From Phycisphaerales bacterium (GTDB taxonomy: Bacteria > Planctomycetota > Phycisphaerae > Phycisphaerales > SM1A02): a stretch of DNA of 58,539 bases. The position numbers were made by a program, and so were the translations under genes. Position 1 is the first letter of the stretch. Every line of letters begins with the position of its first letter. Location of the stretch: contig JBILYM010000001.1 in NCBI GenBank assembly GCA_044377725.1, positions 1 through 58,539 on the forward strand, given 5' to 3'. Shown here one piece after another: positions 10,262-46,679 of the stretch. Under the pieces are notes generated by a model that saw only the letters and a program-made list of their open reading frames with translations, was not told where the DNA came from and searched no databases.

Positions 10262-12286
10262 ATGGTACACTTTCACCTAATGTGGGCAAGTTCGCACAAA
10301 CTCCGGTGCAAACGCTTCGGCGTGTTGGTGGTCGGCGTGATCCTTGCAGGGCTGATGCCGCTCATCGGTTGTTCTGATGATTCGAGCTCGAGCGCCGGGC
10401 GCAAGACTGTCTGGGTTCCTACTGAGACATCGACGAAACACGCCCAAGAGCGATCAATAACAGCAGATGAATTGGTGACGTCAGCGGCTTCGCCGGAGTC
10501 TCAATTCAAAGCTCGGCGTGCATGTGCATTTGCGGCACACGAATTGCCTACCGTCCTTCGCGCCGGTGATCAAAGTCCTTGGCGTGCCCAAGCCTTGACT
10601 CAGTCAGTTGATCTTGCCTGCCATACAGGCACTCCCATTGATTCAATTCGCGCTTTACTTGCAGATACCGCGATCGTGACAGACCCATTTGCCATGGGCG
10701 TTCTGCGCAATAATTTAGGCTGCGCCATTCTTTCGCAATCAGCAGTTGGGGATGCGGTTGACGCCGTTGACCCTGCCATCATCGAGTCTGCCCTTGCGGA
10801 GTTCGAGGGCGTATGCCAAGTACCCGAAGCTCCCCTGAATGAGGCGGCTTGTCATCTCTGGCTCGCGCGCCTGCGACCGTTAGAGGCCGACGCGCACATT
10901 CGTCTAGCACAAGCGGCGCTCAATCGATTAGATGCGGACGAACTGAGTTGTCCAATGCGTGCGGGCCAATTCCTCGGAGTTGTTGGTGCAGGGGAGCGTC
11001 TTGCGTTTGTGTTGGACAGTTCACAAAGCATGGTGGGTCCGCCCTTAGATGGGCTGAAGTCTGCCGCTAAGCAGGCTATTCATCGACTTTTGCCATCATC
11101 GGCATTTATGGTGAGCTTCTTCGGCGATGACGCGACGGTAATGCCTATCCCGTCTGGTGCAAACGTCGATAGAGGTATGTTGATTCGAGGATCATTCTCT
11201 CCTGAGCGGGATGCAAGCATGGTGGCTTGTGATGAATGGATCACACGTCACAGTGCGAGTGGCGACACTTACCCACTGAATGCTCTGCGTGCCGTTGCCG
11301 CGGCGAAGCCCACTCAAGTGTTTCTGTTTACAGACGGCTTGATTGATGATGACACGGGTGAAGTTGCACGTATTGCAGATGAATTCGCGTCAATGCACGC
11401 GCGCATAGACGTCATTATCCTTGCCAATGAGAAGCTTGCGAAGGCGGGATGGTCAGTCGAAGACATCGTTCGGGTTCCGCGTTATCTCGCAAGTCGGACT
11501 GGCGGAGTCGTTCGGCTGATCGGCGAGGCTGGCTCGACGGGCAATGTTTCTTCGGCATGGCTCTCTGGATTTTCGATTCGGAACGCGGCAGAGCGTGACG
11601 GGATGTGGACGCCGGCCGTGGCTCGGCAGTACGCAGTCCTTGTCGCGTCGGTGAATCTATGGAAGCACACGCTCGATCCGTCATGGAAGCTTCCTGCAAC
11701 TACGGCCGAGGGATGCACGTCAGCACTTCGTTCACTGGTGCCGGATCCGGTTACAAGTGATGCTGGGCCTAGCCGACAGGATTGGCAACTCCTGATGATC
11801 GAGGGCGCGGCTCGTTGTAGTTTGGGAGATCCCGCTGCCTGGAAGTCCTTTGACGAAGCAGCAGAAATCTTGTCGGCATTGGCTCTATCTGCTGCCGAAA
11901 TTGGCGAGTCTGCTACCGAGGATCACTACAGTGAACTCTGCGCGCGGGCTGTACTTCTCTCGGCGCTAGCGAAGCCCGAGCGCTTCCAAGCAGCATCAGC
12001 CAACGCCGCGCTCAAGAGGCTCGATTTGTTGCACATCAAACACGGTTGCTGGAGTGTGCAGCTTCTTGAATCCGTCAATTCTTGGTTTCCATCAAGGTGT
12101 ACACGGTCCTTGAAGCCAGACCACTTACCAGATGCACTTGCTTTGCAGGAGTTCGCAGCAATTCACCGCATCGTGTTTGGCGGCGAACCGGCGTCTCCGG
12201 CAGATATGTCCGGGGCACCGATAGCCGACAGAGTTGTCTTTAAGTTCGCACAAGATCGCAGCGCATCGCTGGCGCAAACACCATGA
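10262..12286 (+). CDS. Locus gene A: lipoprotein with a von Willebrand factor A (vWA) domain
   Basis: Lipobox-like LMPLIGC follows a basic n-region. The MIDAS motif DSSQS lies at 11015-11029 within LAFVLDSSQSM. Downstream are SGDTYPLNAL and VFLFTDGLIDDD, the Thr and Asp MIDAS elements. The C-terminal half is helical and unassigned. Confidence 0.75.
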   Translation: MVHFHLMWASSHKLRCKRFGVLVVGVILAGLMPLIGCSDDSSSSAGRKTVWVPTETSTKHAQERSITADELVTSAASPESQFKARRACAFAAHELPTVLRAGDQSPWRAQALTQSVDLACHTGTPIDSIRALLADTAIVTDPFAMGVLRNNLGCAILSQSAVGDAVDAVDPAIIESALAEFEGVCQVPEAPLNEAACHLWLARLRPLEADAHIRLAQAALNRLDADELSCPMRAGQFLGVVGAGERLAFVLDSSQSMVGPPLDGLKSAAKQAIHRLLPSSAFMVSFFGDDATVMPIPSGANVDRGMLIRGSFSPERDASMVACDEWITRHSASGDTYPLNALRAVAAAKPTQVFLFTDGLIDDDTGEVARIADEFASMHARIDVIILANEKLAKAGWSVEDIVRVPRYLASRTGGVVRLIGEAGSTGNVSSAWLSGFSIRNAAERDGMWTPAVARQYAVLVASVNLWKHTLDPSWKLPATTAEGCTSALRSLVPDPVTSDAGPSRQDWQLLMIEGAARCSLGDPAAWKSFDEAAEILSALALSAAEIGESATEDHYSELCARAVLLSALAKPERFQAASANAALKRLDLLHIKHGCWSVQLLESVNSWFPSRCTRSLKPDHLPDALALQEFAAIHRIVFGGEPASPADMSGAPIADRVVFKFAQDRSASLAQTP

Positions 12287-15174
12287 CACACACTCGACAG
12301 AACATGATTCGCCTCGTCCCGAATTGCGGTATCCAGTATTTACAGCTCCAAGATATTTCGCTGAAAGATCTGCTTGCTCATCAGTTCAGCGCCCGGGTGA
12401 AAGTCGCTCCGGAGGGGAGTCTGTCTGTGATCGCACCACTTGCGCCTCGGGCTCGCTCCAGTGCGAGCGTGACAGATGAGTTCAGCGATGATCAGCTTGA
12501 TTTAGAAGGGGCCCCAAAACTCAAATCCCGACTTGCCGATATGTCGGTGCTCAATCAGTTGCTGGCCGCATCGCCCGATGGCGTTTGGCTTCCGGTCCCT
12601 TATGACGCTGGCGGTCTTTGGGTTACGGTGTTTCTTGCCCTTCAAGATGGCAAGGACCAGCGCGTCTCTGTTTGTCTCGCCGTTGAGACGACCCTCGACT
12701 GTGATGGATGTCCGGAAGGGCTAGCCGCGGACGAACTCGGCGAGCGCGTACCGGATCCATGTGGTCCAGTCTTTTGGGGCACCGACGCCGCGCGTCAATC
12801 CATTCGCGCGATCACATCCGGTTTAAAGTCGCCTGGATCTCGGCAGGCGATGGACGCTGCACAGTTGGCCATTGCGGGTCTCGCTAGTTACCTGAACCAG
12901 CACGGCATGGCCCGATTGCACTTCGATGCTCGCCCGGAAGAACGCCTTGCAGTTGGTGTTGATGTGATTGTCGACCTTGGCAACAGCCGAACATGCGTTC
13001 TCTTAGTTGAGCAGCGCGAAGGGGGTCGCCGCGAAAGTCTGCAGTTGGTTTATCCCGATGATCCTCTAAACGCGGTTAAATGTCCCTTCTTGACACAGTC
13101 GGCATTTGTTGAGCATGAGATTCTGCCGCGCTCAGTGGAAGGAATATTTAGTTTTCGATTCCTGTCAATTATCAAAATGGGCCAGCCGGCTCTCGATGCC
13201 CTACTCCGTTCGAAACGGGATGTTCGCCCGCTTGGAATCAGTACTCCAAAGCGTTATCTTTGGGAAGACAAGGAAAGGGTTGCGTGGGAATGGCGATGCG
13301 CGAATCGCGAGGATGAACAGCAAATGTCGCCGCGTATTCACGGTGATGTCCTCCGGCGAATGAGTCCACGGAATCCGCTTACAAAGGCGCCCGAGATCGC
13401 GGGTGTCCCGGCGCAGCCGGACTATCCACGTGCGGCTTGCATGGTCTGGTCGATGGTGGAAATCCTTGAACAGGCATTTCGGCAGGTGAATTCGCCTGAA
13501 TGGCGACGCGCGGCGGCCAATGCGCCACTCGCGGAGCGGCGGCGGCAGATTCGCAATTTAGTCATCACTTACCCAGTTGGGTTCCATAGCGTTGAACTTG
13601 AGAATCTAGACAAGGCTGCATCGCGCGCCGCTCGGCTTTGGTCTGAATTCCGATCAGCCCCCGAAGCCTTTTGTTCTGGCGTCGATCACATTACGGTTGA
13701 CCGCGACTTTGGTATGCGACCACCTGTAGTTCAGCTCGTTTGCGATGAGGCGGTTGCGATCCAAGTCTGTTGGCTGTATGGCGAGTCAATGCATCGGTTC
13801 CAAGCCGATCCCGATCTGCTCATCGGGGCACTGGGTCGTCGTCGTAAGGATGTCGACACACTGCGCATGGCGTCTTTGGATATCGGTGGTGGAACTATCG
13901 ACCTTGCTATTTCTGATTACACAGTGAATGGGAACATGCGGGCTGCCGTGGCATTCCAGTGCAAGACGCTCTTTCATGACGGCATCAGTCGTGCTGGAGA
14001 TGATGTTGTGCGTGGCATCCTGGAAGAAGTGGTTTTCCCAGCGATCATCCGGCAGTGCAAAATCACGGTCCAGCGATGGAATGAGGTGTTTGCATCAACG
14101 TCGACCCCGAACGACGAAGTGCGAGAACTGCGGCAGCGCCTCGTGCGCGAGGTGTGGATGCCAGTGGCGATGCACTGCCTCTCCACATTCGAAGCGAGTG
14201 AGGGTGCGCCGGTGCGATTTGAGATTGGGCATGCGTGCAATAATCTCAGCATCCTTGACGCGCTACAGACTCGTGTTTCGGGGGGCACTGCACCTCGAAT
14301 GCAGTTTCGCGATGTGATTATTGAAGCGGACAAAAAGGTGATGAGAGGCATTGTCCGAAATACGATCGGGAAGACGATCTTTCAGTGCGCCGACATCATC
14401 GATCAATTCGACTGCGATTTGATGGTCGTAGGCGGGCGGCCGTCGAGCAACCCGGCGATTCGCGACCAGATCTACGCGTCGATGGCAGTCCCTCCCGGAC
14501 AAGTGTTCTTTCTGTCAGAGTTAGCTGCCGATGATTGGTATCCGTTCGCAGATGGCAATGGACGGATTGGAGACGCGAAAACATGTGGGGTGGTGGGTGG
14601 TTGGCTTGCGTTTGCAGCCCGGCATGGAATGGGGCAATTCATGCTGAACATTGATGATGACGCTGAATCCTCGCGGGAGCATGCGGAGGCCGCACTCATC
14701 ATCGGATACTTAAAAGACGCAAATCCTGCCAACCCTGCGGCTTTCACCAATGATTCCCGAGTCAATTTCGATTCCGACGCGAAGGGATTGGCAGTGATGC
14801 CATTGCAGCCACTGACTATCGCGAGCCGCAGGGTGGATGACCCGCTCGCCGAGGCGCGGCCCATCTATCGGTTATCACTGAAGAAGCAGCACATCGATGC
14901 CCTTCAGCAACAGCTTGGGCTTATGAAAGAGGTTCGAGTGAAGTTTGAGCGAACCGCGCCGCCCCCAAGAGAGGACGTGCAACTTGGAGACCGCATCATG
15001 CCGTCACCGCGCTTTGATCGAATCAGCATCCCGGTAGGCGGTATCGAGGGTACGGTTCCGCCGGATCACCAAGCGGAGGATTGTTTCGAGCTCCGTCCTC
15101 GCACCTTGCTCGACAATGAGGGCTATTGGATCGACACAGGCATCTTTCGTTCAGTGGACAAGGGCGACGCATAA
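12283..15174 (+). CDS. Locus gene B: SrfB-like actin/Hsp70-fold ATPase (963 aa)
   Basis: Phosphate-1 motif DLGNSRT (12973-12993), phosphate-2 motif LDIGGGTIDLAISDY (13879-13905) and adenosine motif LMVVGGRPSSNPAIRDQI. Its size and the N-terminus LVPNCGIQYLQL resemble the SrfB family as I remember it. ATGA overlap with gene A. Confidence 0.7.
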   Translation: MTHTRQNMIRLVPNCGIQYLQLQDISLKDLLAHQFSARVKVAPEGSLSVIAPLAPRARSSASVTDEFSDDQLDLEGAPKLKSRLADMSVLNQLLAASPDGVWLPVPYDAGGLWVTVFLALQDGKDQRVSVCLAVETTLDCDGCPEGLAADELGERVPDPCGPVFWGTDAARQSIRAITSGLKSPGSRQAMDAAQLAIAGLASYLNQHGMARLHFDARPEERLAVGVDVIVDLGNSRTCVLLVEQREGGRRESLQLVYPDDPLNAVKCPFLTQSAFVEHEILPRSVEGIFSFRFLSIIKMGQPALDALLRSKRDVRPLGISTPKRYLWEDKERVAWEWRCANREDEQQMSPRIHGDVLRRMSPRNPLTKAPEIAGVPAQPDYPRAACMVWSMVEILEQAFRQVNSPEWRRAAANAPLAERRRQIRNLVITYPVGFHSVELENLDKAASRAARLWSEFRSAPEAFCSGVDHITVDRDFGMRPPVVQLVCDEAVAIQVCWLYGESMHRFQADPDLLIGALGRRRKDVDTLRMASLDIGGGTIDLAISDYTVNGNMRAAVAFQCKTLFHDGISRAGDDVVRGILEEVVFPAIIRQCKITVQRWNEVFASTSTPNDEVRELRQRLVREVWMPVAMHCLSTFEASEGAPVRFEIGHACNNLSILDALQTRVSGGTAPRMQFRDVIIEADKKVMRGIVRNTIGKTIFQCADIIDQFDCDLMVVGGRPSSNPAIRDQIYASMAVPPGQVFFLSELAADDWYPFADGNGRIGDAKTCGVVGGWLAFAARHGMGQFMLNIDDDAESSREHAEAALIIGYLKDANPANPAAFTNDSRVNFDSDAKGLAVMPLQPLTIASRRVDDPLAEARPIYRLSLKKQHIDALQQQLGLMKEVRVKFERTAPPPREDVQLGDRIMPSPRFDRISIPVGGIEGTVPPDHQAEDCFELRPRTLLDNEGYWIDTGIFRSVDKGDA

Positions 15175-15179
15175 TCACA

Positions 15180-15980
15180 ATGCTCCCTCCTGATTCAAAC
15201 GCTCCTCTGTCGGTCGGTGCCCCATCATTCCATGCGGCCCAAGAACGCTATTGGCGACAGTTGTACGAGCGTTTCAGCTCGCCATTCGGCCAACAGCAGC
15301 AAATGGTCGAGTTTGATTCCCTGAACCGGGAGGTGACCATGAAGGCTTCCGCGTTCGTTGCAGATCGCGGCCTCCGCATGCCGGAGGATGGGATCGTCGA
15401 GGGACTTGATGTTGCATTTCCGAACGCGTTGCCACGCCATACAAGTCCGCCCGAGTCGATCGCGGGTCCGCTGGCCACTGGTAGCGGCGATCTCCTCTCG
15501 CGATTAGGCCTTGGGGATGCAGAAAAATTGTGGCCGCCTTCGCAGATATCGCGGCTTCAGGTCTTTGCCGAAGAGGCCGAGGCGATTGAGCGACTGTGGG
15601 CATCTCATGCGGACCTCAACCGATCGAGAGATGAAACCGGTGAAGTTGGTCGCATTCGATCACGCCGTGATGAGGCGATTCGATTTATCTCGGCACGATT
15701 TTATGTCGAGTTTCGGGCCGCTGGGATTCCGAACGCGGTCATTGATTCAGTCGCGGTTTCTTTCGCGCGCCGGCTCGAACAGTCGCTCTGCGAGACGAAC
15801 GAGTCAGTTATTACCGTACAAACCGGCACCCGATTCAACTCTGTTAAGCATGAGACACCGGCATCCGGTGGACAGCTGGCGGGCGTTGCTCCGTTAACTT
15901 TCGGACTTGTACGTGACGGCTCGGTCGTCATGCGCATCCCGGTAGAGCCATTTAGCGGTCCCGCGGGAGTTCCACAGTGA
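15180..15980 (+). CDS. Locus gene C: soluble protein with a GrpE-like C-terminal signature (putative nucleotide-exchange partner of B)
   Basis: The C-terminus [16 protein letters not shown]...[18 protein letters not shown] parallels the GrpE pattern G.xFDPxxHEA...GYxxxGRvlRPAxVxV, and it is preceded by charged helices. ATG at 15180 lies 5 nt after the stop of B. The CDS call is firmer than the GrpE assignment. Confidence 0.55.
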
Positions 15981-18136
15981 TTGAAGTACTTGAACCAGGG
16001 CAAGTCCTCATAGAGATCCCGGGACATGGGCCGATCTTGCAGTTTACGGATTATCTCAATAGGCAATTTGGTGGCATGCTCGCTGCTGGCAGGCAGGTGC
16101 AACAAGGACATGCGCGCGCGGTGGATTGGCAGATAGACGGATTGCAGCGCCTCGATTCAAAAGATCCTCGGGTGATTCGAGCGACCGTAACCTTACAAGC
16201 ATCTCTGCAGCGGGTCAGCGCAGCTATTGAGGAAATTAGCCTGTTGCTGACGGCCTCGCGTGCGGACCGCATTCGTATCCACAAAGCGCTTTCTTCAGCG
16301 ATCGGTGGACGTGGACAGGCTGATGCTGTCTACCAACGGTCGGAAGTGGAGCACTTGCGAATGGTCAATCGCCTCGCGGCGTCCGGCGTGCAACGGGCGA
16401 TTGCGCGCGGGGAATTTTATGGGGATGGTCACAAGGTTGTTCTTCGTGGATGGGCCATTCTTCCATTGGAACTACAACCCCCACCCACTCAAGGCCCGGT
16501 TGAGGTTTCTGGATCGATGGGATTGGCGGAGATGGTCGATGGGCGGCCGGTTCACGTCGTTGTGTGGCACACGAGTGGTCCCGCTACGTCGGTGCAGTTG
16601 TATGAGTTCGATTCATCCAACAACCTAGTGCCAGTCGAAGGAACAAACGAGTCAGTATCGGGAAATCCCGGCTCTGGTCGTTGGCGCTTTGCTTCGGAGC
16701 GCCTGCCAACGGGTAAGCAACTCGTCGTGGCAGCCTATGGTGCCGATTCTGAAACGCGATCGACGCCGTTTGTGGTCGAGGGTGTTCTGGTCACACCCCC
16801 GGCGGTGCCGCTCGTCGATGTGCCGCCAGTCGTTGTGCCACCAGTCGCTGTGCCACCAGTCGCTGTGCCACCAGTCACTTTACCGCCTTTTGGTGGGCCC
16901 CCAGTGGTGGTAACGCCACCTATCAAAGTTAAGGAGTATGTTCCCGAGCGACCACGAAGCGCTCGGTGGTGGATATTGGCAGCAGTCCTTGCGGCGATTC
17001 TCATGTTGCTTTGGCTTCTTTGGTTCTTTATGCCTGGGCGACCAGTCTTCGGCTGGAGTCCGGAGTTCTTTACGGCACAACACGTGGTGTTGCCAGAGGC
17101 CGAACACGTCGCCGAGGGGCGCGGCCGGATTATTTCTGCGGATCCACCTGTTAGTCCGCCGACTGATGATCTGCCTGAATCTTCCCCGTTGTTACCGAAT
17201 GGCGGGGCGCGGGTAGCAGTCACGCCGACACCGGCGGGCTCGGTAACGCCCCATGAACCCGTTGATTTGGGTCCTGCAGATCAAGTTCGTCGCCGTCGGG
17301 TAATCCCGACATACGTTGATCGTCCGGCGCCAGAGTCAACACCCGAGCCCGAGTCAACACCCGAGCCAGAGCCAGCACCCGAGCCCGAGTCAACACCCGA
17401 GCCCGAGTCAACACCCGAGCCAGAGCCAGCACCGGAGCCAAAGCGAGCACCCGAGCCAGAGCCCGCATCGGAGCTGGCACCAAAGCCAGCGTCAGCACCT
17501 GAACAGGCGCCAGCGCCTGAACCCGCAGCGGCGTCTGAGCCGGCGCCAGCGCCTCTGGCTCCCCCGAATCCTGGTGGATGTGAGATCCGATTCGAGCCAT
17601 CCCTGCGTACATGGTGTTTAGGCGATGACGGTCCGTGCCAACTACGTATTGGGATTGAACTTGATCAACTTGCTCCTGGATTCATCCAGTGGGCTGAAGG
17701 GGCTGGCTTGGAATTGATTGGTGGCGGAGAAAGTAATGCGAAGGCGAAGTTCGCCATCGACCCTGCACGGATGGCCGCGCTCTCTTCCGACAGTCACTTT
17801 GACGGAATGGGTGTTTCAATTGTCGCTGAGCCAGGGCGCATCATGGTCACCGGTCAAGCGTGGCGACCGATAGCGATCATGTCCCACAGGGTCGGAGACA
17901 GCTCGGTGTGTCGTGGGCGTATTGAAGGAGTTCCCATGGGAACTAAGGAATCCCTTGTATCGCTGGATTCCGCCACTGGAACACGGGAGCTGCGCGGTGA
18001 CTTTGCTTCCGATGTCTGGCGACTGGTGGTGGCAGGAAGCGTTGGTCAACAATCACTGCGCTTCTCGGCGTGTGACCGGACTGTCGTCAGTGCGCCTTTC
18101 ACTATTGTGGTACTGCCAACGGGGGCACAGAGATGA
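15977..18136 (+). CDS. Locus gene D: single-pass membrane protein (N-in) with VPPV and PE(S/T)-rich repeats flanking the TM helix
   Basis: GTGA overlap with C. The TM helix [21 protein letters not shown] is preceded by basic residues. (VPPVA)4 lies before it and [18 protein letters not shown] x2 after it. The ~200-aa C-terminal ectodomain has no recognisable family. Confidence 0.65.
16820..16879 (+). repeat. 15-nt x 4 in-frame tandem repeat (VPPV[VA])
   Basis: gtgccgccagtcgtt / gtgccaccagtcgct / gtgccaccagtcgct / gtgccaccagtcact. Confidence 0.85.
17333..17440 (+). repeat. 54-nt x 2 near-perfect in-frame tandem repeat, built of 18-nt E(S/P)(T/A)PEP subunits, degenerating downstream to about 17560
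   Basis: 17333-17386 and 17387-17440 differ at two positions. The repeat encodes [18 protein letters not shown]. Confidence 0.85.
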
Positions 18137-31031: not shown

Positions 31032-31116
31032 GTTTCGATAGAGTTGCTGTCTGCTGTTCTTGACATTCTCAAAGCGGCATCCGGTTTTGCCCTTGCATTG
31101 GCCGGGAAGGAACTTC

Positions 31117-40700: not shown

Positions 40701-40813
40701 ATGCGCTCCTGCAGCGTCCCTGGAGTGCATGCGTCACGCACGATCGATATCAATTCACTCGCTTCTGCTGGTGTAATCTCGGGATAGGCATTCATGTGGT
40801 TGGATTGATTCAT
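37757..40813 (-). CDS. Locus gene P: 1018-aa single-pass membrane protein (helical/coiled-coil cytoplasmic N-domain, large helical ectodomain)
   Basis: The ATG at 40813 lies 13 nt after the stop of Q. The TM helix IIIGLIIAAVLVAIAAAITTFSI is preceded by RRR. No recognisable family. Confidence 0.65.
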   Translation of the reverse strand: MNQSNHMNAYPEITPAEASELISIVRDACTPGTLQERIEEVREMLELRIVTCNRYLRMLSEWASRGLIVEAASVNESYPELCKVAFQLNMNEGRLEWDQACNMAGISVNSRIDERAFVALSDAVGDASSLDELVQRFQTSVLARQSLATRMQQLQTLLAAAPRNPALKQLAKRYETEALAALESTCRAASMRGEHQTLVDALDAIEGLGWQSQLSAEFYDWLQSEISRERRREAAELYAKLATRIEAAYARRDLMLVGSLSEEVDAVERERRCSPGDKFRERTKEAIEWSETELARLRVEAAHNNACTELRLGLDRKTSQLELSRLRSAVESYGIGVPQDLAERFVRVQSAAITRRRIIIGLIIAAVLVAIAAAITTFSISMAAAQKQAEVAVMAADVQGLSKAGDLAGAKNRLAAIKSTTPWALSYPVMVEAERVVAQAELANSARRAEVRRLLESTVAASKDPATDDASLTALKKSIRDALSVNSDSTAKLAPTERTEAEELLKTVEAEEVKRIADRRRPITEELETLRRDADALGAPVGAAGSEQSISWMSQANAIRKRCDDFVRKIPANYPERQVATDVSARLGEQVGAIERTTLAIATAESALARLSKTPTSEEEFSKRITELLAQPETLKALGLPTAVLDETRDMAQVALALQHWREVVLGGPATSAKSSGIAIPASSQEAATFRKSLEAHLHSFPTSPYTSAATGCIAMCETISANDGALVGLSALAQLKDTGLLSIQQLSLTKNRWAFMRDGGPGTGSLAGLLFSCKELTVPLTELKANIEVRSGDVNGSARREVPPWCDAFTQATPAFGSSDAIVAQNAWLGAIESARMSVKSKTKATEILGLANFIVHALQVFVESLSFPEGIDQSLCGKLESVLHSPEALKLTEADWVALSLSKADPKAERENLRRSAQLFLDSIPDLKAAVQSRSAQWAGVSKSARATTIAGLLLPKVPGEARRRASESNLNGRFMLLEHDIAGGAWSLKPIRLEGGTLAEGGSSGPSYSFIYRVD

Positions 40814-40826: not shown

Positions 40827-41858
40827 TCATCGACGCAACATCAGCAGTACGACAGTGGTGGCTATCGCTAGCAGCAGCACCACAGCCGTGGTGATCGCTG
40901 CGTACAGATAAACAGTCGATGTTCTGTGTTCGGGTGGGGCGGGGTTGGGCGCTGATCCGGATGGATTCCTCCGATTCATGGTTGATGCCACGGAGATCGG
41001 AGCGGTTGATTGTTCGTCGATGACGGCCACTGGTGGGGCAAGACCGCTCAGGTCGAGCACCGGTTCCTGACGCCGGGCGCCGGCGGCGGGGGTGCGGCGC
41101 GGCGGTTCCGTCGGACCAATTGGCGGGCTCGCGGTGCCGCGTGCGTTGGTCCAATCAGCAATCGGACGTGACGTGCCGGGTACGCCTTGTTGTAGGAGCA
41201 CGAGACTTGTCGCGATGCTGCCATGGGAATCCTCCGTCGTCGCGATGCGCAATGCTGATGGTCTGAGAGACTTCTCAACGATCGCGGCGATGATTGTCTG
41301 GACTGGTGCATTGCGCGGTATCAGTAATCTCGCGGGTTCGTTGTGTGTTCGGGAGCCAATTGCGGCAAGGTGCGCTGCCCAACCTTCAGCATGATCGGTG
41401 AGGGCTTGGAGTGCGGCATGTGCTGAATCGAGGATGGCGGCTGGTGCCGCGGTTGGGGCATGTCGCAATGGAAGGCGCCGAGGCTGCCCTTGGAAGTTCT
41501 GGCAAAAAACGCCATCATCGAGCAACACCGCGGCGATAGATGCGGCGGTGAGCTCCGTGCCCATGAGTACAAGATGATGCGCAAGGCGGGCTGGTCTGCC
41601 AGTGTGGTCGGCTACCACAGGCACGATCCGTGATAAGACCATGGCGGGACCGGTGGCAGTCGTGACCGGCCACAGCCTGAGCACTGCATGGGCGGCGGCA
41701 TCGCTCGATTTCTCAATCCGCGCAACGGTGGTTGCAGATGCGTTCGCTAGCGCTGCAATGAGATCTGCAGCCATCCCCTCGCTACATGCAACTGTGGTGT
41801 ATCCCGAGCGGTCGTCGAAGAGTCCTTTCGGGGCAGAAGTGTGGATGAGCTCGAGCAT
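40827..41858 (-). CDS. Locus gene Q: tail-anchored GAP1-N-like protein (GTPase-associated)
   Basis: The start is taken at MLELIHTSAPKGLFDDRSGYTTVACSEGM (ATG 41858, 13 nt after the stop of R). The ORF-track start at 42008 would overlap R by 137 nt. ADHTGRPARLAHHLVL resembles the DxxGRxxxxxxHxLV element I recall for GAP1 N-domains. The C-terminal TM helix is VYLYAAITTAVVLLLAIATTVVLLML. Confidence 0.6.
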   Translation of the reverse strand: MLELIHTSAPKGLFDDRSGYTTVACSEGMAADLIAALANASATTVARIEKSSDAAAHAVLRLWPVTTATGPAMVLSRIVPVVADHTGRPARLAHHLVLMGTELTAASIAAVLLDDGVFCQNFQGQPRRLPLRHAPTAAPAAILDSAHAALQALTDHAEGWAAHLAAIGSRTHNEPARLLIPRNAPVQTIIAAIVEKSLRPSALRIATTEDSHGSIATSLVLLQQGVPGTSRPIADWTNARGTASPPIGPTEPPRRTPAAGARRQEPVLDLSGLAPPVAVIDEQSTAPISVASTMNRRNPSGSAPNPAPPEHRTSTVYLYAAITTAVVLLLAIATTVVLLMLRR

Positions 41859-41871
41859 GGAATCGTCAACA

Positions 41872-43101
41872 TCAGGCGAGCATTGGGAACACCTTGGGAT
41901 CCGACATGGCGATCGCAAGCACGAAGGGCATTTCCGCCCATCGGGGTCGGACGTCTGCAGCACGCAGTTTGAAATGGCCGTCTGCGTCGCGGGTTGGCGA
42001 AGTACCAAGCGCGCTCGCCGGAACGAAGATGACCTTTTGTGCCAAGATGTTCGCGGCGTTTAGAAACTCTGGTGCCGTCTCTCGCAGTGCCTCGCGTGCG
42101 AGTTGGTCGACCTCTTGAAGTTTGGCTATCAACCGCTTCCGTCGGGGTATCAATGCGTCCGGGAGGTCGAGTTCGGACCAGTCCGCACCCAATGCCTTGT
42201 CCGCCCAAACGTCGGCCTTTGTGAGTGCAATGATCAAGGGAATAGGGATCGGCGCCGTCGGATCCAGTGAGCGGAGGCGGCGAACACGGGCGATAGCTTC
42301 GGTAAGTACAAGTTCCTGTCGTTCGTGCCGGCCGGTGTGTGGCGCATCAAATCCGTCGGCGAAGCGATCACGGAATCGTGCGTCTTGCAGCGGGTCGAAC
42401 ACAGTAACGATCGCGCTGCTCCGTTCGAGATGGCGCGTCGCGATTTCTGCACCAGCAAACTGACTGTCCGGGAGAAAATGCTCGCCAGCATTGTCATACA
42501 GAACCATCACCGACCGGCGGGTTTCATCTTTGTGGCGTGTCACGAAGTACGACGGCTTGGTGAGCGTTTCAGTCTGGCCACCGATGCGCACCGAGCGATA
42601 CAGATCGTTACCGCCAACATCGGTCTTCGGCAGTGTGACGTCTGCGGAAGGATCGCGCGTCGCAAACAGCAAGCTCTCGTTGCGGTGTAGCAGTGCGTTG
42701 AAACGAGGATCGGCATCCACGATCTCCAAGCCGAAGTCCGCTGCCCGCTGTGCAAGACCCCACATTCCAGAGGCGAGCAGATTGGTCTTTCCGGATCCTG
42801 GCGCGCCGACAACTGAGATTGGAATCTGACGGAGTTCCAGCAACGCCCGTGGGAACTCAATGTGGCAACGCGGACAGGCTATGCGTGTGCACCGACCGTC
42901 GTTTGGATCGATCGCATTTCCGGATGCATCGAAGCGCATCGCGCGGAATCGCAGTTGCTCGGCCGGCCCGGCGATTGGGTCACCGCGGAGTTGGACGCTC
43001 TCTGCAATGAAACGCACTTGGGTTGGCGGAAATTCACGCCAACAGTTCGGGCAGACGACAGATCGCCTAAGGGATGTACCGGAATCCTTGGCCGTGGCCA
43101 T
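41872..43101 (-). CDS. Locus gene R: Zn-ribbon + TRAFAC-type GTPase
   Basis: CPNC...CPRC (C17/C20, C76/C79) precede G1 GAPGSGKT (42784-42807), G3 VLYDNAGE and G4 IIALTKADV. No TM helix. Confidence 0.75.
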   Translation of the reverse strand: MATAKDSGTSLRRSVVCPNCWREFPPTQVRFIAESVQLRGDPIAGPAEQLRFRAMRFDASGNAIDPNDGRCTRIACPRCHIEFPRALLELRQIPISVVGAPGSGKTNLLASGMWGLAQRAADFGLEIVDADPRFNALLHRNESLLFATRDPSADVTLPKTDVGGNDLYRSVRIGGQTETLTKPSYFVTRHKDETRRSVMVLYDNAGEHFLPDSQFAGAEIATRHLERSSAIVTVFDPLQDARFRDRFADGFDAPHTGRHERQELVLTEAIARVRRLRSLDPTAPIPIPLIIALTKADVWADKALGADWSELDLPDALIPRRKRLIAKLQEVDQLAREALRETAPEFLNAANILAQKVIFVPASALGTSPTRDADGHFKLRAADVRPRWAEMPFVLAIAMSDPKVFPMLA

Positions 43102-43199: not shown

Positions 43200-45317
43200 T
43201 CAACGCGTCTTTATGGGCTGGGGAGGCAATTTGAATTGCGCATCCAAATCCTTCGGCACAGGGATTGCCAGTACATGACTAAGGCGCGCTCGCGAGACCC
43301 AGATTCCATTCGTGTAGTCACGCCCTAAAGCACTGATGAGTGATTTACGTTTCTCAGGGTCGGCTTCGGCCCCGAACATTTCAAGCAACTGTTGAACGGA
43401 TGGTTTTTTATCGATGCCATGTGTCAAATGCTCGCTTCCCACCGCAATTTTTTGTTGACCCGACTCCACTGCTCTTAGGAAACAATTGAAGTCGCGGCTC
43501 TCGGTGGACGACAGCGATTTGTCGGCGATTTCTGCTAAATCGGGGTACATCTTCAGAATGTGTGTTCGAAACTCCGGTGAACAAACCTCGTCGTCTCCAA
43601 GTCTCGTCGTTTCAAGTCCCCACATGTTGCCATCTTCACCCATAAAGGCCGCAAATGCGTGCCCGGGCGGCATCAAGATCATGCTCGATAGGCCCATTTT
43701 CTCAAGAAAACTACAAATGAGGATCGTGCCGTCAACGCAGTTAGCGTTTTGCGACAACAACGTCTCGTGGATGCTCCTGGTCTCCTGAGCGCTGTGATCG
43801 ACCGAACCTGGTAGCGAGGAGTATCGCAAGCCGCGCGCCTTCAATTCTCGCCACAGCAGAAATACCGCGAAGAAGGACCGGTGGGCACCTGCGCCCCCGG
43901 ACGCGGACATCCCAGTGCGCTTCGCGAGAGAGCACTGATTTATTTGGTTCAAGATTCTCTCGACCCAAGGGTGACCCTCGTTGACCATTCCTACGAATCC
44001 GAGACGCATCGGATAAGAGGTTTCGACAAGGTCGGGCGGCATGATCGTGACGGTTTCAAGCATGCGCTCGTCTTCTGACCCATCACCGTATTTGACACTC
44101 ACCGACATGGTGATGGTTTCTGGCGCAGTTAACTTCGCGAGTTCGTCTATGTCCCACTGGGGTTGGAGCCCGATTTCCCAAAGGTCCGAATCATGCTCAT
44201 CCTTCGATAGCCAAACACATTCTGGATGTTCTCCTTCAGCGAGGTGGACCGATTCCTGTTTAGTCGCTTGTCCACCAGAGAGAAGTCTCCGACCTGCAGC
44301 GTTGCGTAACTCAATCTCAACTCGAACATTAGTGCCGGTCGGCGCATTTGTGAAGTACACGCTGAATACGGGTCGAGTGGCATCGAGCCAATCCGATTGG
44401 CTGATGAATTGCGCTCTGCAGACCAGTTCGAGGGGGTTGGTCTCGGCTCCGTCCGCCGCTCTTGACATTGAAAATCGATCTACGAACCAGTCGACCTCTT
44501 GACCGGCTGGAACCGCCAATCGTTCCGCTTCTACCTCAGCAAGTGCGATTTCCGAGTTAGCGTAGACCACTTTGTTAAACGCCAGTTTGGCGCCGATTGA
44601 CTTGGCGAGACCCGTTGTTCCACGTTGAATTGCGACCGTCGCCTGCGAGGGTTGTTTGGGCGCTGGCGCTGGCGCTGGCGGTGGCTCTGGAGCTGGTGCT
44701 GGAGCGGGTGTTGCTATCGCACTGGGCACGCCTGCTGCGGGGGCGGCGGCACGTGCGACCGTCGCGACGGGGGTCGCTTTCGCCACGATTGGTGCCTTGG
44801 TCTCCGCTCCACCAACGGTTCCGGACGCCGTTCGGTTGCCTGCGGAGTTCTGCGGCGCGGGCTCAGATACCGCGATGCTCGTTGGTTGTTCGAGCGGAGG
44901 TGCTGGCCGCCTAAAGAACATGGCAGCACCGATTCCGACGGTGGCAACCAGTGACAACATTCCGATCCCGATCGCTACGTAGAGCACTCCCCGCCCGCGT
45001 CTCCCCGCCGACGGTTGGTTGATCGGGGGCGCTAGAAATGGTGCTGCTACTGATGATCGGGCAGGGGGTTCCAATACCGGACCTAGCGAAATAGATCCGC
45101 GATCCGGGGGTGCCCGCTCAAACGCAGGCAGAGACGCTGATGCTGCAGCCCGTGGCTGCGGAGGCGCGGATGGACGATGTGCGCGTTTGTGCAGATTTCT
45201 GGCTGTATGAGGAAGAACCGTTCGACGCCCGCAACGTTTGCATCGCACTTCTTCCGCAGTCGTCCCCTCGGGAAGAATCAGGGACGCTCCACAGTGTTGG
45301 CAATCAACGGTGTTCAT
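43200..45317 (-). CDS. Locus gene S: Zn-ribbon - TM helix - Pro/Ala-rich spacer - ectodomain ending in a transglutaminase/papain-like Cys-His domain
   Basis: CQHC...CKRC lies at the N-terminus. The TM helix is VLYVAIGIGMLSLVATVGIGAAMFF. PAPAPAPEPPPAPAPAP follows. NANCVDGTILICSFLEKMGL...PGHAFAAF...WGLETT gives Cys527 (codon 43737-43739) and His553. Confidence 0.65.
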   Translation of the reverse strand: MNTVDCQHCGASLILPEGTTAEEVRCKRCGRRTVLPHTARNLHKRAHRPSAPPQPRAAASASLPAFERAPPDRGSISLGPVLEPPARSSVAAPFLAPPINQPSAGRRGRGVLYVAIGIGMLSLVATVGIGAAMFFRRPAPPLEQPTSIAVSEPAPQNSAGNRTASGTVGGAETKAPIVAKATPVATVARAAAPAAGVPSAIATPAPAPAPEPPPAPAPAPKQPSQATVAIQRGTTGLAKSIGAKLAFNKVVYANSEIALAEVEAERLAVPAGQEVDWFVDRFSMSRAADGAETNPLELVCRAQFISQSDWLDATRPVFSVYFTNAPTGTNVRVEIELRNAAGRRLLSGGQATKQESVHLAEGEHPECVWLSKDEHDSDLWEIGLQPQWDIDELAKLTAPETITMSVSVKYGDGSEDERMLETVTIMPPDLVETSYPMRLGFVGMVNEGHPWVERILNQINQCSLAKRTGMSASGGAGAHRSFFAVFLLWRELKARGLRYSSLPGSVDHSAQETRSIHETLLSQNANCVDGTILICSFLEKMGLSSMILMPPGHAFAAFMGEDGNMWGLETTRLGDDEVCSPEFRTHILKMYPDLAEIADKSLSSTESRDFNCFLRAVESGQQKIAVGSEHLTHGIDKKPSVQQLLEMFGAEADPEKRKSLISALGRDYTNGIWVSRARLSHVLAIPVPKDLDAQFKLPPQPIKTR
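44659..44710 (-). repeat. Hexanucleotide-type (GCTGGC-like) in-frame microsatellite encoding (PA)n/(PE)n
   Basis: The + strand reads ggcgctggcgctggcgctggcggtggctctggagctggtgctggagcgggtg. Confidence 0.7.
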
Positions 45318-45434
45318 GCTCGCATCCTCGGTGAATTCGCGGAAGTGCTCGTTCCCACGGTTAGATCTCTAGTTTACACCCAAACAGCAGCCCCCGACAA
45401 TTGGAATCTACTCAAATCCCTCCACATAAACACG

Positions 45435-46679
45435 TCACCGCAACGCCACCGCCTCCGCATCATCAATCGCAACCGTTGAACCAACGTGTCCGATGTCCCA
45501 ATCGGAGGTCGATTCCACCAGCACCATCGGGGTGTTGTTCACAGTGATGCATTGCTCACCGGGCTGCGTGCTGCAACCGATCGCCAGGATCATGTGCGGC
45601 GTATTGCCGCTCATGCAGTAGACGAGCGCCAGCGGCGTGTCGATATCGATGCTGCGAATCAGCGTTGCCAGGAGCAGGCTCTTGGTATCGCAATCGCCAC
45701 CGTCGATGAGCGCCTCGGCGGGAGTGCGTAGGCCGCAGCGGGTTTTGCCGTCATCAACAAGATCATGGCGCTGATCATCGACTTTGTGATATGGAACAGC
45801 GTTTTGCACATAGCTAGTGAGCGCTTCGATACTTTGCCGAGCGGATGGCTGCATGCGCGGGTTGTTCCAGTAGGCATTGATGACGTCAATGGCAACGCCG
45901 CGCAGGGCGGGCGCCGATTGGTCAAGAATCCACTGGTGATCCGGGGCAATTCCATCGGCAGTGCACGTGATTCCGTGCTGCGTCAGTGTTTGCGTGACGG
46001 CTTGTTCAATGGCCGCAAGGGCGCCTGGAGTTTGGTGGTAGGTGATGGATTCCAGCGCCGCGGCGGGGAATCCAAAGTGGTGCTCCAGCGCATCGGCCCG
46101 TGCGATGTCGATCGCGGATGGGATGTGGAACGCGGTGGGCACGCATTCGGCGCGCATGTACTTGGTGTCCGCATCGCGTCGGACGATGCATGACTGGTCG
46201 TCGGTCCAATCGACGAAGGCGATGTTGCGGAAGCGAGCACGCGGCGCGGAGAACTCGTGCGGCGATTCGTACCAGGCGCGGAAGTTAGCGTTCTCTGGAA
46301 TGGCCAGAATGCTGGCGAGCACTGCAGCGATGTTGACTGCACTAGCGGCAGCGTTTGAGTCATTCGCAGTGGTGGTGTTCGCCGCGCCGGATGTCGAGGG
46401 TGCGGCGGGAACGGTTGGAACGTTCGGGGCGTTTGCCGGCGAATTCGTGTTCGGTGCAGTGGCGACGGCCGGATCAATCGCACGCGGCGCGCGGCGCGCC
46501 ATGGAACCCTTGCGCGTTGGGCGAGCGCGGGCGGGTGAACGAGCACCGCTCGGCGTAGACATCGGCGTGGAAAGCGCGGGACCGCCGGGCGCAGTGGCTG
46601 CGGGCGGAGCAGCGGCGAATGCCGGCTCGATGGTGATCACGGCGAGAAGGATGCCGGACGCGATGGTGGCGATACGCAT
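45435..46679 (-). CDS. Locus gene T: secreted protein with a transglutaminase/papain-like Cys-His domain (paralogous in motif pattern to S)
   Basis: Signal peptide MRIATIASGILLAVITIEPAFAA, followed by a Pro/Ala/Asn-rich region. DGGDCDTKSLLLATLIRS...GNTPHMILAIG...VLVESTS gives Cys330 (codon 45690-45692) and His362. Confidence 0.6.
   Translation of the reverse strand: MRIATIASGILLAVITIEPAFAAAPPAATAPGGPALSTPMSTPSGARSPARARPTRKGSMARRAPRAIDPAVATAPNTNSPANAPNVPTVPAAPSTSGAANTTTANDSNAAASAVNIAAVLASILAIPENANFRAWYESPHEFSAPRARFRNIAFVDWTDDQSCIVRRDADTKYMRAECVPTAFHIPSAIDIARADALEHHFGFPAAALESITYHQTPGALAAIEQAVTQTLTQHGITCTADGIAPDHQWILDQSAPALRGVAIDVINAYWNNPRMQPSARQSIEALTSYVQNAVPYHKVDDQRHDLVDDGKTRCGLRTPAEALIDGGDCDTKSLLLATLIRSIDIDTPLALVYCMSGNTPHMILAIGCSTQPGEQCITVNNTPMVLVESTSDWDIGHVGSTVAIDDAEAVALR

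Follow-up and report, generated by a model that had tools for sequence, protein, structure and literature searches.

The question raised by this locus is whether a 36-kb block of 20 genes in a Phycisphaerales bacterium encodes one envelope-spanning machine or a composite. The block lies within the window, i.e., the whole stretch of DNA analyzed (58,539 nt of contig JBILYM010000001.1), and a sequence-only reading had proposed a single undescribed machine built around four TKxD GTPases. It is fairly likely that the block is instead a composite of a Srf-type operon, A-L (10262-32202), often accompanied by T, and a seven-gene insert, M-S (32271-45317), with a putative role in conflict. Gene order, folds, domains, and the two-module split are the established part of this explanation.

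Organization of the Locus

All 20 open reading frames were confirmed, 14 on the + strand (10262-35618) and 6 on the - strand (35735-46679), forming two convergent arrays separated by a 116-bp gap between N and O, as previously described (Table 1). Junctions from A to K are mostly 4-nt overlaps, indicating translational coupling, and the run ends at the largest gap of the + array, the 68 nt between L and M. The GC3 of the cluster was 0.52-0.64 compared to 0.66-0.72 in the flanks. Start codons were revised for C (probably M18, the ORF listed from 15126 being too long), K (probably M14, so that it overlaps J by 4 nt), and Q (most likely M51 at 41858, 14 nt past the stop of R); the 137-nt Q/R overlap stems from the longest-ORF start.

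An independent scan for hydropathy, lipoboxes, and signal peptides returned the same 14 envelope-targeted products out of 20 as the earlier reading (A, D, E, G, I, J, L, M, N, O, P, Q, S, and T), the periplasmic or cytoplasmic placement of every domain being a hydropathy prediction. No tRNA or Rfam features were found in the locus and, in agreement with the previous description, no toxin, nuclease, integrase, or phage genes were recognized in the cluster. The suggested PADLOC search gave no significant match, and no named defense system was hit. Downstream of the cluster, the window contains a DAO gene and an aconitase gene (54749-57475).

Table 1. Genes of the 36-kb block, with window coordinates and predicted features.
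Gene	Coordinates	Strand	Predicted product
A	10262..12286	+	Lipoprotein, predicted periplasmic vWA domain; SrfA position
B	12283..15174	+	SrfB, predicted cytoplasmic Hsp70-fold (ASKHA) ATPase
C	15177..15980	+	Small soluble core protein
D	15977..18136	+	Bitopic core protein: cytoplasmic N-domain, TM 333-351, Pro-rich periplasmic part (predicted)
E	18133..19191	+	Bitopic core protein, TM 283-301
F	19188..21941	+	SrfC-family protein, bacterial dynamin-like GTPase fold
G	21960..24449	+	Bitopic core protein: 630-aa cytoplasmic part, TM 630-648
H	24433..25074	+	Small soluble core protein
I	25071..29048	+	Bitopic: cytoplasmic DO-type GTPase 1-390, TM 392-410, helical periplasmic region, weakly FGE-like C-terminal domain
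J	29068..29958	+	Core lipoprotein, lipobox LYGC
K	29955..31031	+	Soluble core protein
L	31060..32202	+	Exported TPR protein (TPR family matches); last gene of conserved operon
M	32271..33353	+	DO-GTPase, C-terminal TM anchor (TM 340-358); first gene of insert
N	33372..35618	+	N-terminal cytoplasmic domain, TM helix, hypervariable ectodomain (paralog of the O ectodomain)
O	35735..37648	-	GYF-domain protein, TM helices at 130 and 200, ectodomain
P	37757..40813	-	1018-aa bitopic protein at position of "FNIII-repeat" component
Q	40827..41858	-	GAP1, N2-type N-domain, C-terminal TM anchor (TM 372-390); start corrected
R	41872..43101	-	Zn-ribbon and GTPase
S	43200..45317	-	Zn-ribbon, TM helix, predicted periplasmic domain with Cys...His motif; last gene of insert
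T	45435..46679	-	Exported, C-domain with Cys...His (transglutaminase-like?)

The Conserved Srf-Type Core

Profile matches of B to SrfB (PF07520, 1e-94) and of F to SrfC/Virul_Fac (PF10139, 5e-30) substantiated the proposed resemblance to the SrfABC cluster, with B sharing only ~25% identity with proteobacterial SrfB. The actin/Hsp70-fold motifs recognized earlier in B (DxGNxxT, DxGGGTxD, and GG(R)P) were invariant in 31 homologs, and the fold was confirmed by an AF2 model (pLDDT 89, pTM 0.92) with DnaK, Hsp110, and BiP as best Foldseek matches (1e-14). No PF00012 match was obtained for B, which is hence not a canonical HSP70. The AF2 model of F (pLDDT 85) matched SynDLP (1e-7) in Foldseek, followed by Campylobacter DLP, BDLP, LeoA, IniA, and mitofusin, at low TM-scores (0.21-0.24) that indicate fold class and not close superposition.

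GTPase motifs were present in all four proteins for which they had been reported (F, I, M, and R), but the G4 motif of F is not degenerate as claimed: G70ESQxGKS (P-loop GESQCGKS) and D389xPG are followed by TKSD at 497-500, of which D500 is invariant and K498 at least 90% conserved across 27 sequences. Nor are the four GTPases a single family: F is dynamin-type; I, M, and probably R belong to the DO type, with only distant relationships among them. I, a receptor-like protein, serves as marker gene for the extended cluster; it carries the P-loop GFPNSGKT and TKRD, and its 31 homologs, some with PF19993 matches, keep GxxxSGK(T)S, ExxGE, and TKxD invariant. An FGE-like ectodomain had been proposed for both I and G and found weak support in I (FGE-sulfatase 19.9 bits versus a cut-off of 23.3, with weak PDB FGE matches) but none in G, which had no family match.

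Protein A has the lipobox LIGC and the complete vWA MIDAS described before (D252xSxS, T336, and D358), its Pfam VWA_3 score (21.6 bits) nonetheless falling under the cut-off. Orthologs of A with 27-39% identity lie upstream of SrfB in L009-L012 (L numbers denote the contigs compared), and A had no detectable similarity to SrfA, tblastn with Salmonella or Cereibacter SrfA giving no match. C is conserved in L001-L003, L005, and L007-L009, and the GrpE-like ending ascribed to it was not reproduced, with no Pfam match and a negative hhalign comparison to GrpE. A short motif of D recurs in the N/O ectodomain (hhalign 93%, 27 columns), the N-terminal 170 aa of E are 35-54% identical across relatives, and H lies directly 5' of I in all of them. 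J orthologs share 27-41% identity and K orthologs are also present in relatives; L, whose TPR assignment was upheld, was found in L001, L002, L016, and L017 and is missing in L003. The arrangement fits the earlier suggestion that cytoplasmic NTPases are tied to periplasmic domains via single-pass membrane proteins.

Gene T belongs with the core operon as a recurrent accessory and lies outside the insert. In L004 and L018, homologs with 59% and 60% identity, respectively, follow K in an orientation convergent to the core, a T-type domain is fused in-line after I in L005 and L007, and the GC3 of T (0.71) is flank-like.

The Insert Adjacent to the Core

Both M (PF19975, 38.4 bits; PF19993, 36.4 bits; cut-off 27) and Q (GAP1-N2 PF20013, 56 bits) scored above Pfam cut-offs, in support of the suggested likeness to DO-GTPase/GAP1 systems (Kaur et al., 2020). 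M contains the P-loop GRRKAGKS and TKCD. R is probably a DO-GTPase, with CxxC at 17-20 and 76-79, the P-loop GAPGSGKT, DNAGE, and TKAD, a PF19993 score of 25.8 bits slightly under the cut-off of 27, and an hhalign match to M (69%, E 4e-5). N is a probable divergent GAP1-N2-like protein whose alignment to the GAP1-N2 domain of Q is in register but weak; its L007 homolog matched GAP1-N2 at E = 0.038, N itself being under the Pfam threshold. M-N and R-Q are accordingly read from their profiles as two putative DO-GTPase/GAP1-N2-type pairs, with R and N sub-threshold. GAP1-M and GAP1-C domains were not detected in Q.

N is paralogous to O (48% identity across the C-terminal ectodomains) and not to Q as had been stated. 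Compared to its L006 ortholog, N has an ectodomain of 20-63% identity and an N-domain of 92-100% in strains otherwise 94-98% identical. The GYF domain previously seen in O was confirmed (GYF_2 PF14237, 64 bits). P had no Pfam match and no detected FNIII, and fn3 matches occurred in none of the 40 members examined of its family (472 representatives). The transglutaminase/papain-like domains attributed to S and T held at the level of the Cys-His motif only: Transglut_core reached just E = 0.14 in T, and S 387-563 matched the N-terminal part of the NCBIfam "anti-phage protein ProA" (5e-16), far under the whole-protein cut-off.

Distribution in Related Genomes

Comparison across relatives separated two modules. 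The B-K block, usually with A and L, was syntenic in L001-L005, L007-L012, L016-L018, L021, and L023, and about 10 related contigs keep the core as one conserved operon. DAO or aconitase comes immediately after it in L001-L003 and L016, matching the genes downstream in the window, and the aconitase of relatives is 89-90% identical to that of the window. This fixed chromosomal site beside housekeeping genes in several relatives also fits a housekeeping role. In L018 the core is followed by a V1 homolog and T, and L002 passes from L to a V1 homolog, which defines M to T as the window-specific segment.

Genes M-S were found only in the window and in L006, a MAG 97% identical at the nucleotide level, and are missing in all the syntenic contigs listed above. 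M itself is absent in L001-L005 and L008-L028 and has a distant homolog in L007, a distant MAG in which a convergent pair of DO-GTPase and N-like protein (weak GAP1-N2) abuts the core. From this distribution, M-S is a lineage-specific insert. The breakup of the gene set in relatives, named earlier as an outcome that would refute a single 20-gene machine, is thus partly observed, with M-S absent and the B-K block staying together.

The core system is rare: the I family comprises 31 clusters among 5.8 billion, and a pattern-limited scan, giving a lower bound, detected at least two loci among 185,579 species representatives. It was seen in Planctomycetaceae (L007) and Phycisphaerae (L008) MAGs, and its proteins share 26-60% identity between genomes with 90%-identical aconitase.

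Comparison With Known Systems

As judged from profile matches and gene order, A-L is a planctomycete version, with expanded gene content, of the poorly understood SrfABC cluster. SrfA, SrfB, and SrfC are reported to assemble into a heteromeric complex, and cytotoxicity has been reported for Xenorhabdus SrfABC (PMC6950479). In the SrfABC operon (Salmonella SsrB-regulated factors; Xenorhabdus "SrfABC toxin"), SrfB and SrfC have the same order as B and F, but the canonical operon has 3 genes (L030, L032) compared to 12 here, where C, D, and E sit between SrfB and SrfC, the vWA lipoprotein A occupies the place of SrfA, and G-L are added, including the DO-type GTPase receptor I. Srf clusters on the alphaproteobacterial plasmids Cereibacter sphaeroides p.A (SrfB, SrfC, vWA, FGE-domain protein at 1.6e-21, trypsin-like protease, and ABC transporter) and Methylobacterium pNMS14P1 (trypsin-like proteases, TPR proteins, SrfB, and SrfC) similarly combine SrfB and SrfC with vWA, TPR, and FGE partners in a co-directional array. 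They have no DO-type GTPase and none of the bitopic proteins (D, E, G, and I), encode FGE as a separate protein that is not GTPase-fused, and differ further in carrying trypsin-like proteases, a PG-binding protein, and an ABC transporter. These plasmid clusters are unnamed and annotated as hypothetical proteins only.

The insert M-S matches the GYF-containing planctomycete type of GAP1-N2 "GTPase-centric conflict system" for which Kaur et al. (2020) made a computational prediction; they described systems of ZnR-GTPase, GAP1-N2, and GYF/TM proteins in planctomycetes (PMC7159879). In common with these, CxxC pairs lie at the N terminus of R, the next gene is a GAP1 (Q), GTPase and GAP1 are both TM-anchored, O is a GYF and TM protein, and the extracytoplasmic module is hypervariable. 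In contrast, FNIII repeats were undetected in P and the examined members of its family, O has one GYF domain and not a pair, Q lacks detected GAP1-M/GAP1-C, R and N are sub-threshold, and the genes are nested beside a Srf-type operon. A further theme of GAP1-N2 neighborhoods, HSP70 with GrpE, is reported mainly in actinobacteria and firmicutes (Kaur et al., 2020; PMC7159879); likewise, an Hsp70-fold ATPase, TPR, and vWA are linked to DO-type GTPases here, but the Hsp70-fold protein is SrfB and the GrpE-like partner is unconfirmed. SrfB is absent from the main text of that study, and one of its supplementary files contains neither SrfB nor SrfC. The earlier description of the system as undescribed stands for the A-L core, which appears undescribed in the literature searched, but not for the - array and M-N, which represent a published, purely computational system type.

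Like bacterial dynamin-like proteins (BDLP, DynA, SynDLP, LeoA, and IniA), F has G1, DxPG, and TKxD followed by a long helical region; it differs by the lack of a Pfam Dynamin_N match, the low TM-scores, and the absence of a second DLP partner gene. F is embedded with an Hsp70-fold ATPase, an association not known among characterized BDLPs.

Alternative Explanations and Proposed Role

One integrated 20-gene envelope-spanning machine, with M-S as true subunits or regulators lost or relocated elsewhere in relatives, is quite unlikely. Core and insert are adjacent in the window and L006, the L007 pair lies right after the core, I is also a DO-type GTPase, GC3 is similar in core and insert, and D shares its short motif with the N/O ectodomain, yet the core occurs in at least 10 independent contigs with no M-S homolog within 6-10 kb downstream, several going straight to DAO/aconitase, and the L-M gap interrupts the overlap chain. 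A planctomycete housekeeping apparatus encoded by A-L, serving membrane remodeling, envelope biogenesis or repair, division, or uptake through dynamin-type fission/fusion by SrfC and chaperone-type disassembly by SrfB, is unlikely, although the stable position beside DAO and aconitase, the occurrence in both MAG lineages, the tightly coupled operon, the dynamin fold of F, and a cluster devoid of toxin, nuclease, integrase, and phage genes would suit it. Against it stand the rarity of the core, its very fast divergence relative to neighbor genes, the atypical GC3, and the presence of SrfB and SrfC in ordinary proteobacteria and on plasmids too. Very improbable is secretion of an SrfABC-type toxin or virulence factor that acts on eukaryotic cells, as claimed for Xenorhabdus; despite the SrfB and SrfC membership of B and F and the reported cytotoxicity (PMC6950479), both proteins have cytoplasmic NTPase folds without signal peptides, no secretion system is linked, the relatives come from environmental metagenomes and MAGs, and ten more conserved genes for membrane-anchored or periplasmic proteins would be superfluous for a soluble tripartite toxin.

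For the favored composite of Srf-type core and insert, the cytoplasmic side would comprise SrfB (B) as an Hsp70-fold ATPase, SrfC (F) as a dynamin-fold GTPase, and three small proteins (C, H, and K), with D, E, G, and I as four single-pass links to the periplasm; I would place a DO-type GTPase switch inside and a helical and FGE-like domain outside. The vWA/MIDAS lipoprotein A, lipoprotein J, TPR protein L, and Cys-His protein T would form the periplasmic side. An envelope event such as phage or competitor attack or damage may be sensed by the periplasmic ligand-binding domains and relayed by the bitopic proteins to the GTPase switches, which would recruit or release SrfB and SrfC, and these would then remodel or seal the cytoplasmic membrane or deliberately break it. 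The neighboring GAP1-N2 system could be a second sensor/switch module of similar logic, maybe functionally allied but separable, and the DO-GTPase and GAP1-like pair beside the core in L007 makes some functional coupling between core and insert possible. We infer that the core is an NTP-gated envelope sensor coupled to membrane remodeling, and the locus is probably used in biological conflict, with fast core divergence, the hypervariable N ectodomain, and atypical GC3 as its signature.

Composite organization of the locus

The sequence-only reading had described the 20 genes A to T as two convergent arrays that would encode a single, candidate envelope-spanning NTPase machine. The ORF map gave an identical gene set with 116 bp between N and O, the P-loop and TKxD motifs were present at the positions claimed for them, and the same 14 products carried a TM helix, lipobox, or signal peptide, so that the underlying observation was real. 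Successive genes from A to K mostly overlapped by 4 nt, and wider intergenic gaps were found between L and M (68 bp), O and P (108 bp), R and S (98 bp), and S and T (117 bp). The Q gene probably starts at M51 (41858), 14 nt past the R stop, and with this start the apparent 137-nt Q/R overlap disappears; internal Met codons are likewise the probable starts of C and K and bring back short overlaps.

Gene coordinates in the window and the comparison array from Cereibacter sphaeroides
Feature	Position	Strand	Basis or description
A	10262-12286	+	ORF map
B	12283-15174	+	ORF map; start overlapped 4 nt by A
C, D, E	between B and F	+	ORF map
F	19188-21941	+	ORF map
G, H	between F and I	+	ORF map
I	25071-29048	+	ORF map
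J, K	between I and L	+	ORF map
L	31060-32202	+	ORF map
M	32271-33353	+	ORF map
N	33372-35618	+	ORF map
O	35735-37648	-	ORF map
P, Q, R	between O and S	-	ORF map
S	43200-45317	-	ORF map
T	45435-46679	-	ORF map
L029, C. sphaeroides plasmid p.A	31852-49649		Extended SrfB/SrfC array

The single 20-gene machine was contradicted by synteny, as the core recurred without M-S in related loci. Genomic contexts of the I, SrfB (B), and SrfC (F) homologues were compared along with loci from genome and metagenome scans, the latter queried with the I-family alignment. A recurrent block corresponding to B-K encoded SrfB (~950 aa), proteins of ~250, ~630, and ~300 aa, SrfC (~920 aa), proteins of ~800 and ~200 aa, I (1170-1358 aa), and proteins of ~290 and ~355 aa; in most cases an A-like gene overlapped the start of SrfB, and the final gene was usually a TPR gene (L). 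DAO and/or aconitase genes directly followed the block in four related loci (L001, L002, L003, and L016); the aconitase of relatives was 89-90% identical to that at 54749-57475 in the window, and the order in L002 was L, a homologue of the window gene at 46935-47564, and aconitase. The compared core loci lacked homologues of each gene from M to S, which outside the window were seen only in L006, a contig from a MAG that shares 97% identity with the window. T homologues of 59% and 60% identity were oriented convergently with the core in L004 and L018, immediately beyond K in the former and beyond the homologue of 46935-47564 in the latter. In L005 (13853-15760) and L007 (13801-15861), an in-line gene between I and J encoded a protein of 635-686 aa whose C-terminal half was the T-type domain; through this fusion or relocation, T is functionally tied to the core operon. 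The GC3 of T (0.71) was like that of the flanks and unlike that of the cluster. Given the block without M-S in relatives and the separate distribution of T, the locus can be assigned with high confidence to a 12-gene operon (A-L), a recurrent accessory gene (T), and a 13-kb insert of seven genes (M-S) between them.

The B-I part was also present in a Phycisphaerae MAG (L008) and a Planctomycetaceae MAG (L007), indicating that the core extends across the phylum. In L007, a convergent operon lay immediately after the core and encoded a DO-GTPase resembling M and a protein resembling N with a weak GAP1-N2 signal, so that the two module types may be loosely allied in function.

The GC3 of A-S (10262-45317) was 0.52-0.64 compared to 0.66-0.72 in the flanking aconitase, DAO, and S8 and S9 peptidase genes; core and insert were thus both compositionally atypical, although the core occupies a conserved locus. 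The mobile-element search identified no tRNA genes or Rfam features, no repeats were shared by the L/M and S/T junctions, M had no plasmid matches, and promoter and terminator matches were no commoner than in shuffled sequence.

Several observations concern the surroundings of the cluster. A 546-aa gene at 8649-10289 on the reverse strand is divergent from A, and its homologue (32% identity) was likewise divergent in L011 and L012; it may be an extra conserved neighbor of the cluster. In L011 and L012, the divergent gene was flanked by a homologue of window gene 47620-49086 (+), a gene found beyond the opposite end of the cluster in the window, and this switched position indicates rearrangement in the vicinity of the locus. 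Only one public genome contig is near-identical to the window, L006 (CALQCP020000011.1), and it is labelled "MAG: Chitinophaga pinensis"; the flanking PA14/DUF1080/DUF7133 genes are planctomycete-like in appearance, the named more distant relatives are all Planctomycetaceae or Phycisphaerae MAGs, and the label is probably an error.

The core as an expanded SrfABC-family operon

Profile matches bore out the proposed resemblance to the SrfABC cluster. B was assigned to the SrfB family (PF07520; 318 bits, E 1.3e-94) and F to SrfC/Virul_Fac (PF10139; 104.8 bits, E 5e-30), with F co-directional and downstream of B and with C, D, and E intervening. The order of SrfB then SrfC in one operon is common to SrfABC and the window core, but canonical enterobacterial operons consist of srfA-srfB-srfC alone compared to the 12 genes of the core. 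The SrfA position is held by A, a vWA lipoprotein without SrfA similarity: tblastn gave no match between A and Salmonella SrfA or the Cereibacter SrfA-position protein, and SrfA has no Pfam domain. The complete vWA MIDAS predicted for A was found together with a lipobox, while A scored under the cut-off of Pfam VWA.

Structures of B and F were modelled from alignments of their homologues. The B model (pLDDT 89, pTM 0.92) matched full-length DnaK, Hsp110, and BiP in Foldseek (E 1e-14, probability 1.0), and the phosphate-1, phosphate-2, and adenosine motifs recognized by the sequence-only reading were invariant in 31 sequences of the family (D231/G233/T237, D533-G-G-G-T-x-D540, and G717-G718-x-P720). 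By sequence, Hsp70 entries of the PDB were matched by B at E~0.2 at best. The modelled structure supports with high confidence an Hsp70/ASKHA ATPase fold for SrfB. The F model (pLDDT 85) matched SynDLP (1e-7), Campylobacter DLP, BDLP, LeoA, IniA, and mitofusins in Foldseek with TM-scores of 0.2-0.4, and GESQxGKS (G1), DxPG (G3), and TKSD (G4) were conserved. These matches to bacterial dynamin-like proteins and the conserved GTPase motifs identify F as a dynamin-type GTPase, and a dynamin fold is predicted for the SrfC-like F with high confidence. F shares G1, G3, G4, a helical stalk, and the fold with dynamin-like proteins but lacks a Dynamin_N profile match, as PF10139 was its sole Pfam match at E<=0.01, and phmmer against the PDB returned nothing. 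No phage matches were found for F. Membership of F in the GTPase family of I, M, and R was ruled out, F being of the dynamin type.

The I family comprised 31 homologues among 5.8 billion protein clusters, several with PF19993, and aligned as a GTPase, a TM helix, a poorly conserved helical region, and a conserved C-terminal domain. Its GxxxSGKTS, ExxGE, and TKxD motifs were invariant, including E133, G136, and E137, and the Walker B region of I reads EIAGE. FGE-like ectodomains had been proposed for G and I; G had no match, whereas the I C-terminus weakly resembled FGE-sulfatase below the cut-off (PF03781; 19.9 bits, E 6e-4, cut-off 23.3) and had weak PDB matches to FGE and Treponema variable protein. 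L was confirmed as a TPR protein by Pfam. A GrpE-like C was not upheld, with no Pfam match to C and no hhalign match of the C family to E. coli GrpE, the latter being a weak test. NCBIfam returned nothing for A-K. For the Cys-His domains of S and T, the shared C...H motif was present and a peptidase fold was not supported (T Transglut_core, E=0.14); PDB sequence searches gave a spurious low-complexity match alone for T and nothing meaningful for S.

All-against-all hhalign of the 20 family profiles yielded three links, namely N with O, a short motif common to D and O, and a weak match between M and R, and detected no link between S and T or between the G and I ectodomains. The short motif aligns D residues 578-604 (window 17700-17800) with O residues 366-392 (hhalign 93%, 27 columns) and was the sole core-insert sequence link found. 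D and the N/O ectodomain also both carry proline/threonine-rich linkers.

Extended SrfB/SrfC arrays were also identified on alphaproteobacterial plasmids. The Cereibacter array encoded a PG-binding protein, trypsin-like protease, SrfA-position protein, SrfB, SrfC, a protein of 353 aa, a vWA protein, the ATPase and permease of an ABC transporter, and a protein with a solidly matched FGE domain (1.6e-21), and SrfB and SrfC of Methylobacterium pNMS14P1 lay amid trypsin-like proteases and TPR proteins. These alphaproteobacterial arrays have the appearance of an "extended Srf" system, as yet unnamed, in a group other than the Planctomycetota, and the recurrence of vWA, TPR, and FGE partners in another phylum argues that A, L, and the I C-terminus are genuine functional partners rather than chance neighbors. 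Each array has 9-12 genes, every one annotated as hypothetical.

PADLOC returned insignificant matches only (PDC-M61B for B, 8.5e-4, and mad8 for R, 3e-3), as the sequence-only reading had expected. Literature searches found no mechanistic description of SrfB or SrfC and nothing on an SrfB Hsp70 fold, an SrfC dynamin fold, or an extended Srf system, and neither protein is named in a supplementary file to the Kaur et al. paper. In the literature searched, the description of the locus as an undescribed system appears to hold for the core, which is a new and much expanded SrfABC-family variant, and fails for the insert, which belongs to a published system type.

The insert and GAP1-N2 systems

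GAP1-N2 "GTPase-centric" systems were predicted computationally by Kaur et al. (PMC7159879) and include a DO-GTPase with N-terminal Zn-ribbons and, downstream of it, a GAP1 protein, TM anchors on GTPase and GAP1, rapidly evolving FNIII repeats, and a "diversifying" sensor module; in the planctomycete version, a linked GYF protein has a pair of GYF domains fused to a TM-rich region. The suggested resemblance to these double-GTPase/GAP1 systems was substantiated by Pfam. M matched DO-GTPase (PF19975/PF19993) at 38.4 and 36.4 bits against a cut-off of 27, and R matched DO-GTPase2 in the P-loop region only at 25.8 bits, just under the cut-off of 27; the two aligned with each other at 69% in hhalign. 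R carries C17xxC20 and C76xxC79 N-terminal to the P-loop, and the Walker B glutamate of the GAP1-N2 systems is kept in M (DYPGE), R (DNAGE), and I. Q (343 aa) has a GAP1-N2 domain (PF20013; 56.1 bits) followed by a low-complexity linker and TM helix. N, encoded downstream of M, gave an in-register but non-significant alignment to the beginning of GAP1-N2 in Q, and M-N look like a second, more divergent DO-GTPase/GAP1 pair. The GYF domain assigned to O was confirmed (GYF_2, 64 bits), with TM helices at residues 130-148 and 200-218.

The R-Q-P-O genes agree in order and content with the GAP1-N2 systems. The insert differs from them in that O has a single GYF domain rather than two, GAP1-M and GAP1-C were unmatched in Q and N (Pfam, E<=0.01, with GAP1-N2 the sole match), and FNIII repeats were undetected in P. 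P had no Pfam match and no internal repeats by self-BLAST, and fn3 was matched in none of 40 family members scanned by Pfam (472 relatives in the representative search), a scan that very divergent FNIII could escape. Residues 387-563 of S (window 43627-44158) matched residues 63-240 of the 1903-aa NCBIfam model ProA (NF058533) at 5e-16, a domain-level similarity that was the only notable NCBIfam result, and literature searches found no published description of "anti-phage protein ProA."

N and O, rather than N and Q, are a paralogue pair, with 48% identical ectodomains. Between the window and L006, strains otherwise 94-98% identical, the cytoplasmic 290 aa of N were 92-100% identical compared to 20-63% for its ectodomain (window 34250-35618, L006 12800-14178) and 78-100% for the O ectodomain. 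The contrast suggests that one sensor-like domain has undergone replacement or diversifying selection at the strain level, supporting a fit with the "diversifying" sensor module of Kaur et al. Judged from its sequences, the insert fits a further case of the GAP1-N2 system type.

Proposed function of the core

Predicted cytoplasmic components of the core include B, C, F, H, K, and the N-terminal domains of D, E, G, and I, while A, J, L, T, and the C-terminal domains of D, G, and I are predicted to be periplasmic. The most economical reading, held with low-to-moderate confidence, is an NTP-gated trans-envelope device in which periplasmic ligand-binding domains would report an envelope event and the I GTPase would act as the switch. 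The response at the cytoplasmic membrane would then come from SrfB as an Hsp70-type clamp or remodeller and from SrfC by dynamin-type fission, fusion, or sealing.

Such a device might serve housekeeping or conflict. The fixed chromosomal position of the core and the absence of a recognizable toxin from the cluster favor a housekeeping role for A-L, which is nevertheless considered unlikely. A conflict role is suggested by rapid divergence, with 26-60% identity among core proteins of genomes that share 90% identity in aconitase, along with the low GC3 relative to the flanks, the rarity of the system, and themes common with the Kaur et al. systems (vWA, TPR, and FGS, with trypsin in the alphaproteobacterial versions). 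On a more speculative and less likely reading, A-L would be the fullest form of an unrecognized, phylum-spanning "extended Srf" envelope system, a machine for membrane remodelling or abortive defense that is coupled to receptors and driven from the cytoplasm by SrfB and SrfC, with the vWA, TPR, and FGE-like proteins as conserved extracytoplasmic partners.

SrfABC has been called a "virulence factor" or "toxin" since 2000 and, to our knowledge, has been without a mechanism since its discovery. In the only functional study retrieved (PMC6950479), SrfABC of Xenorhabdus is reported to form a heteromeric complex and to be cytotoxic on application to animal cells or on expression in them. The locus offers a natural example of a Kaur-type GAP1-N2 system adjoining a related GTPase-containing system, and the sensor-like ectodomain of the GAP1-N2 system differs sharply between near-identical strains. 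If the "extended Srf" reading is true, SrfABC would be the minimal remnant of this machine and neither effectors nor toxins. The folds of SrfB and SrfC, their 12-gene operon with its GTPase-receptor fusion and vWA, TPR, and FGE-like proteins, and the recurrence of these partner domains in alphaproteobacteria together provide the testable framework of an NTP-gated, envelope-spanning sensor and membrane-remodelling system. The main value of the locus is that an orphan "virulence factor" family becomes a testable envelope system of Hsp70, dynamin, and receptor-GTPase components.
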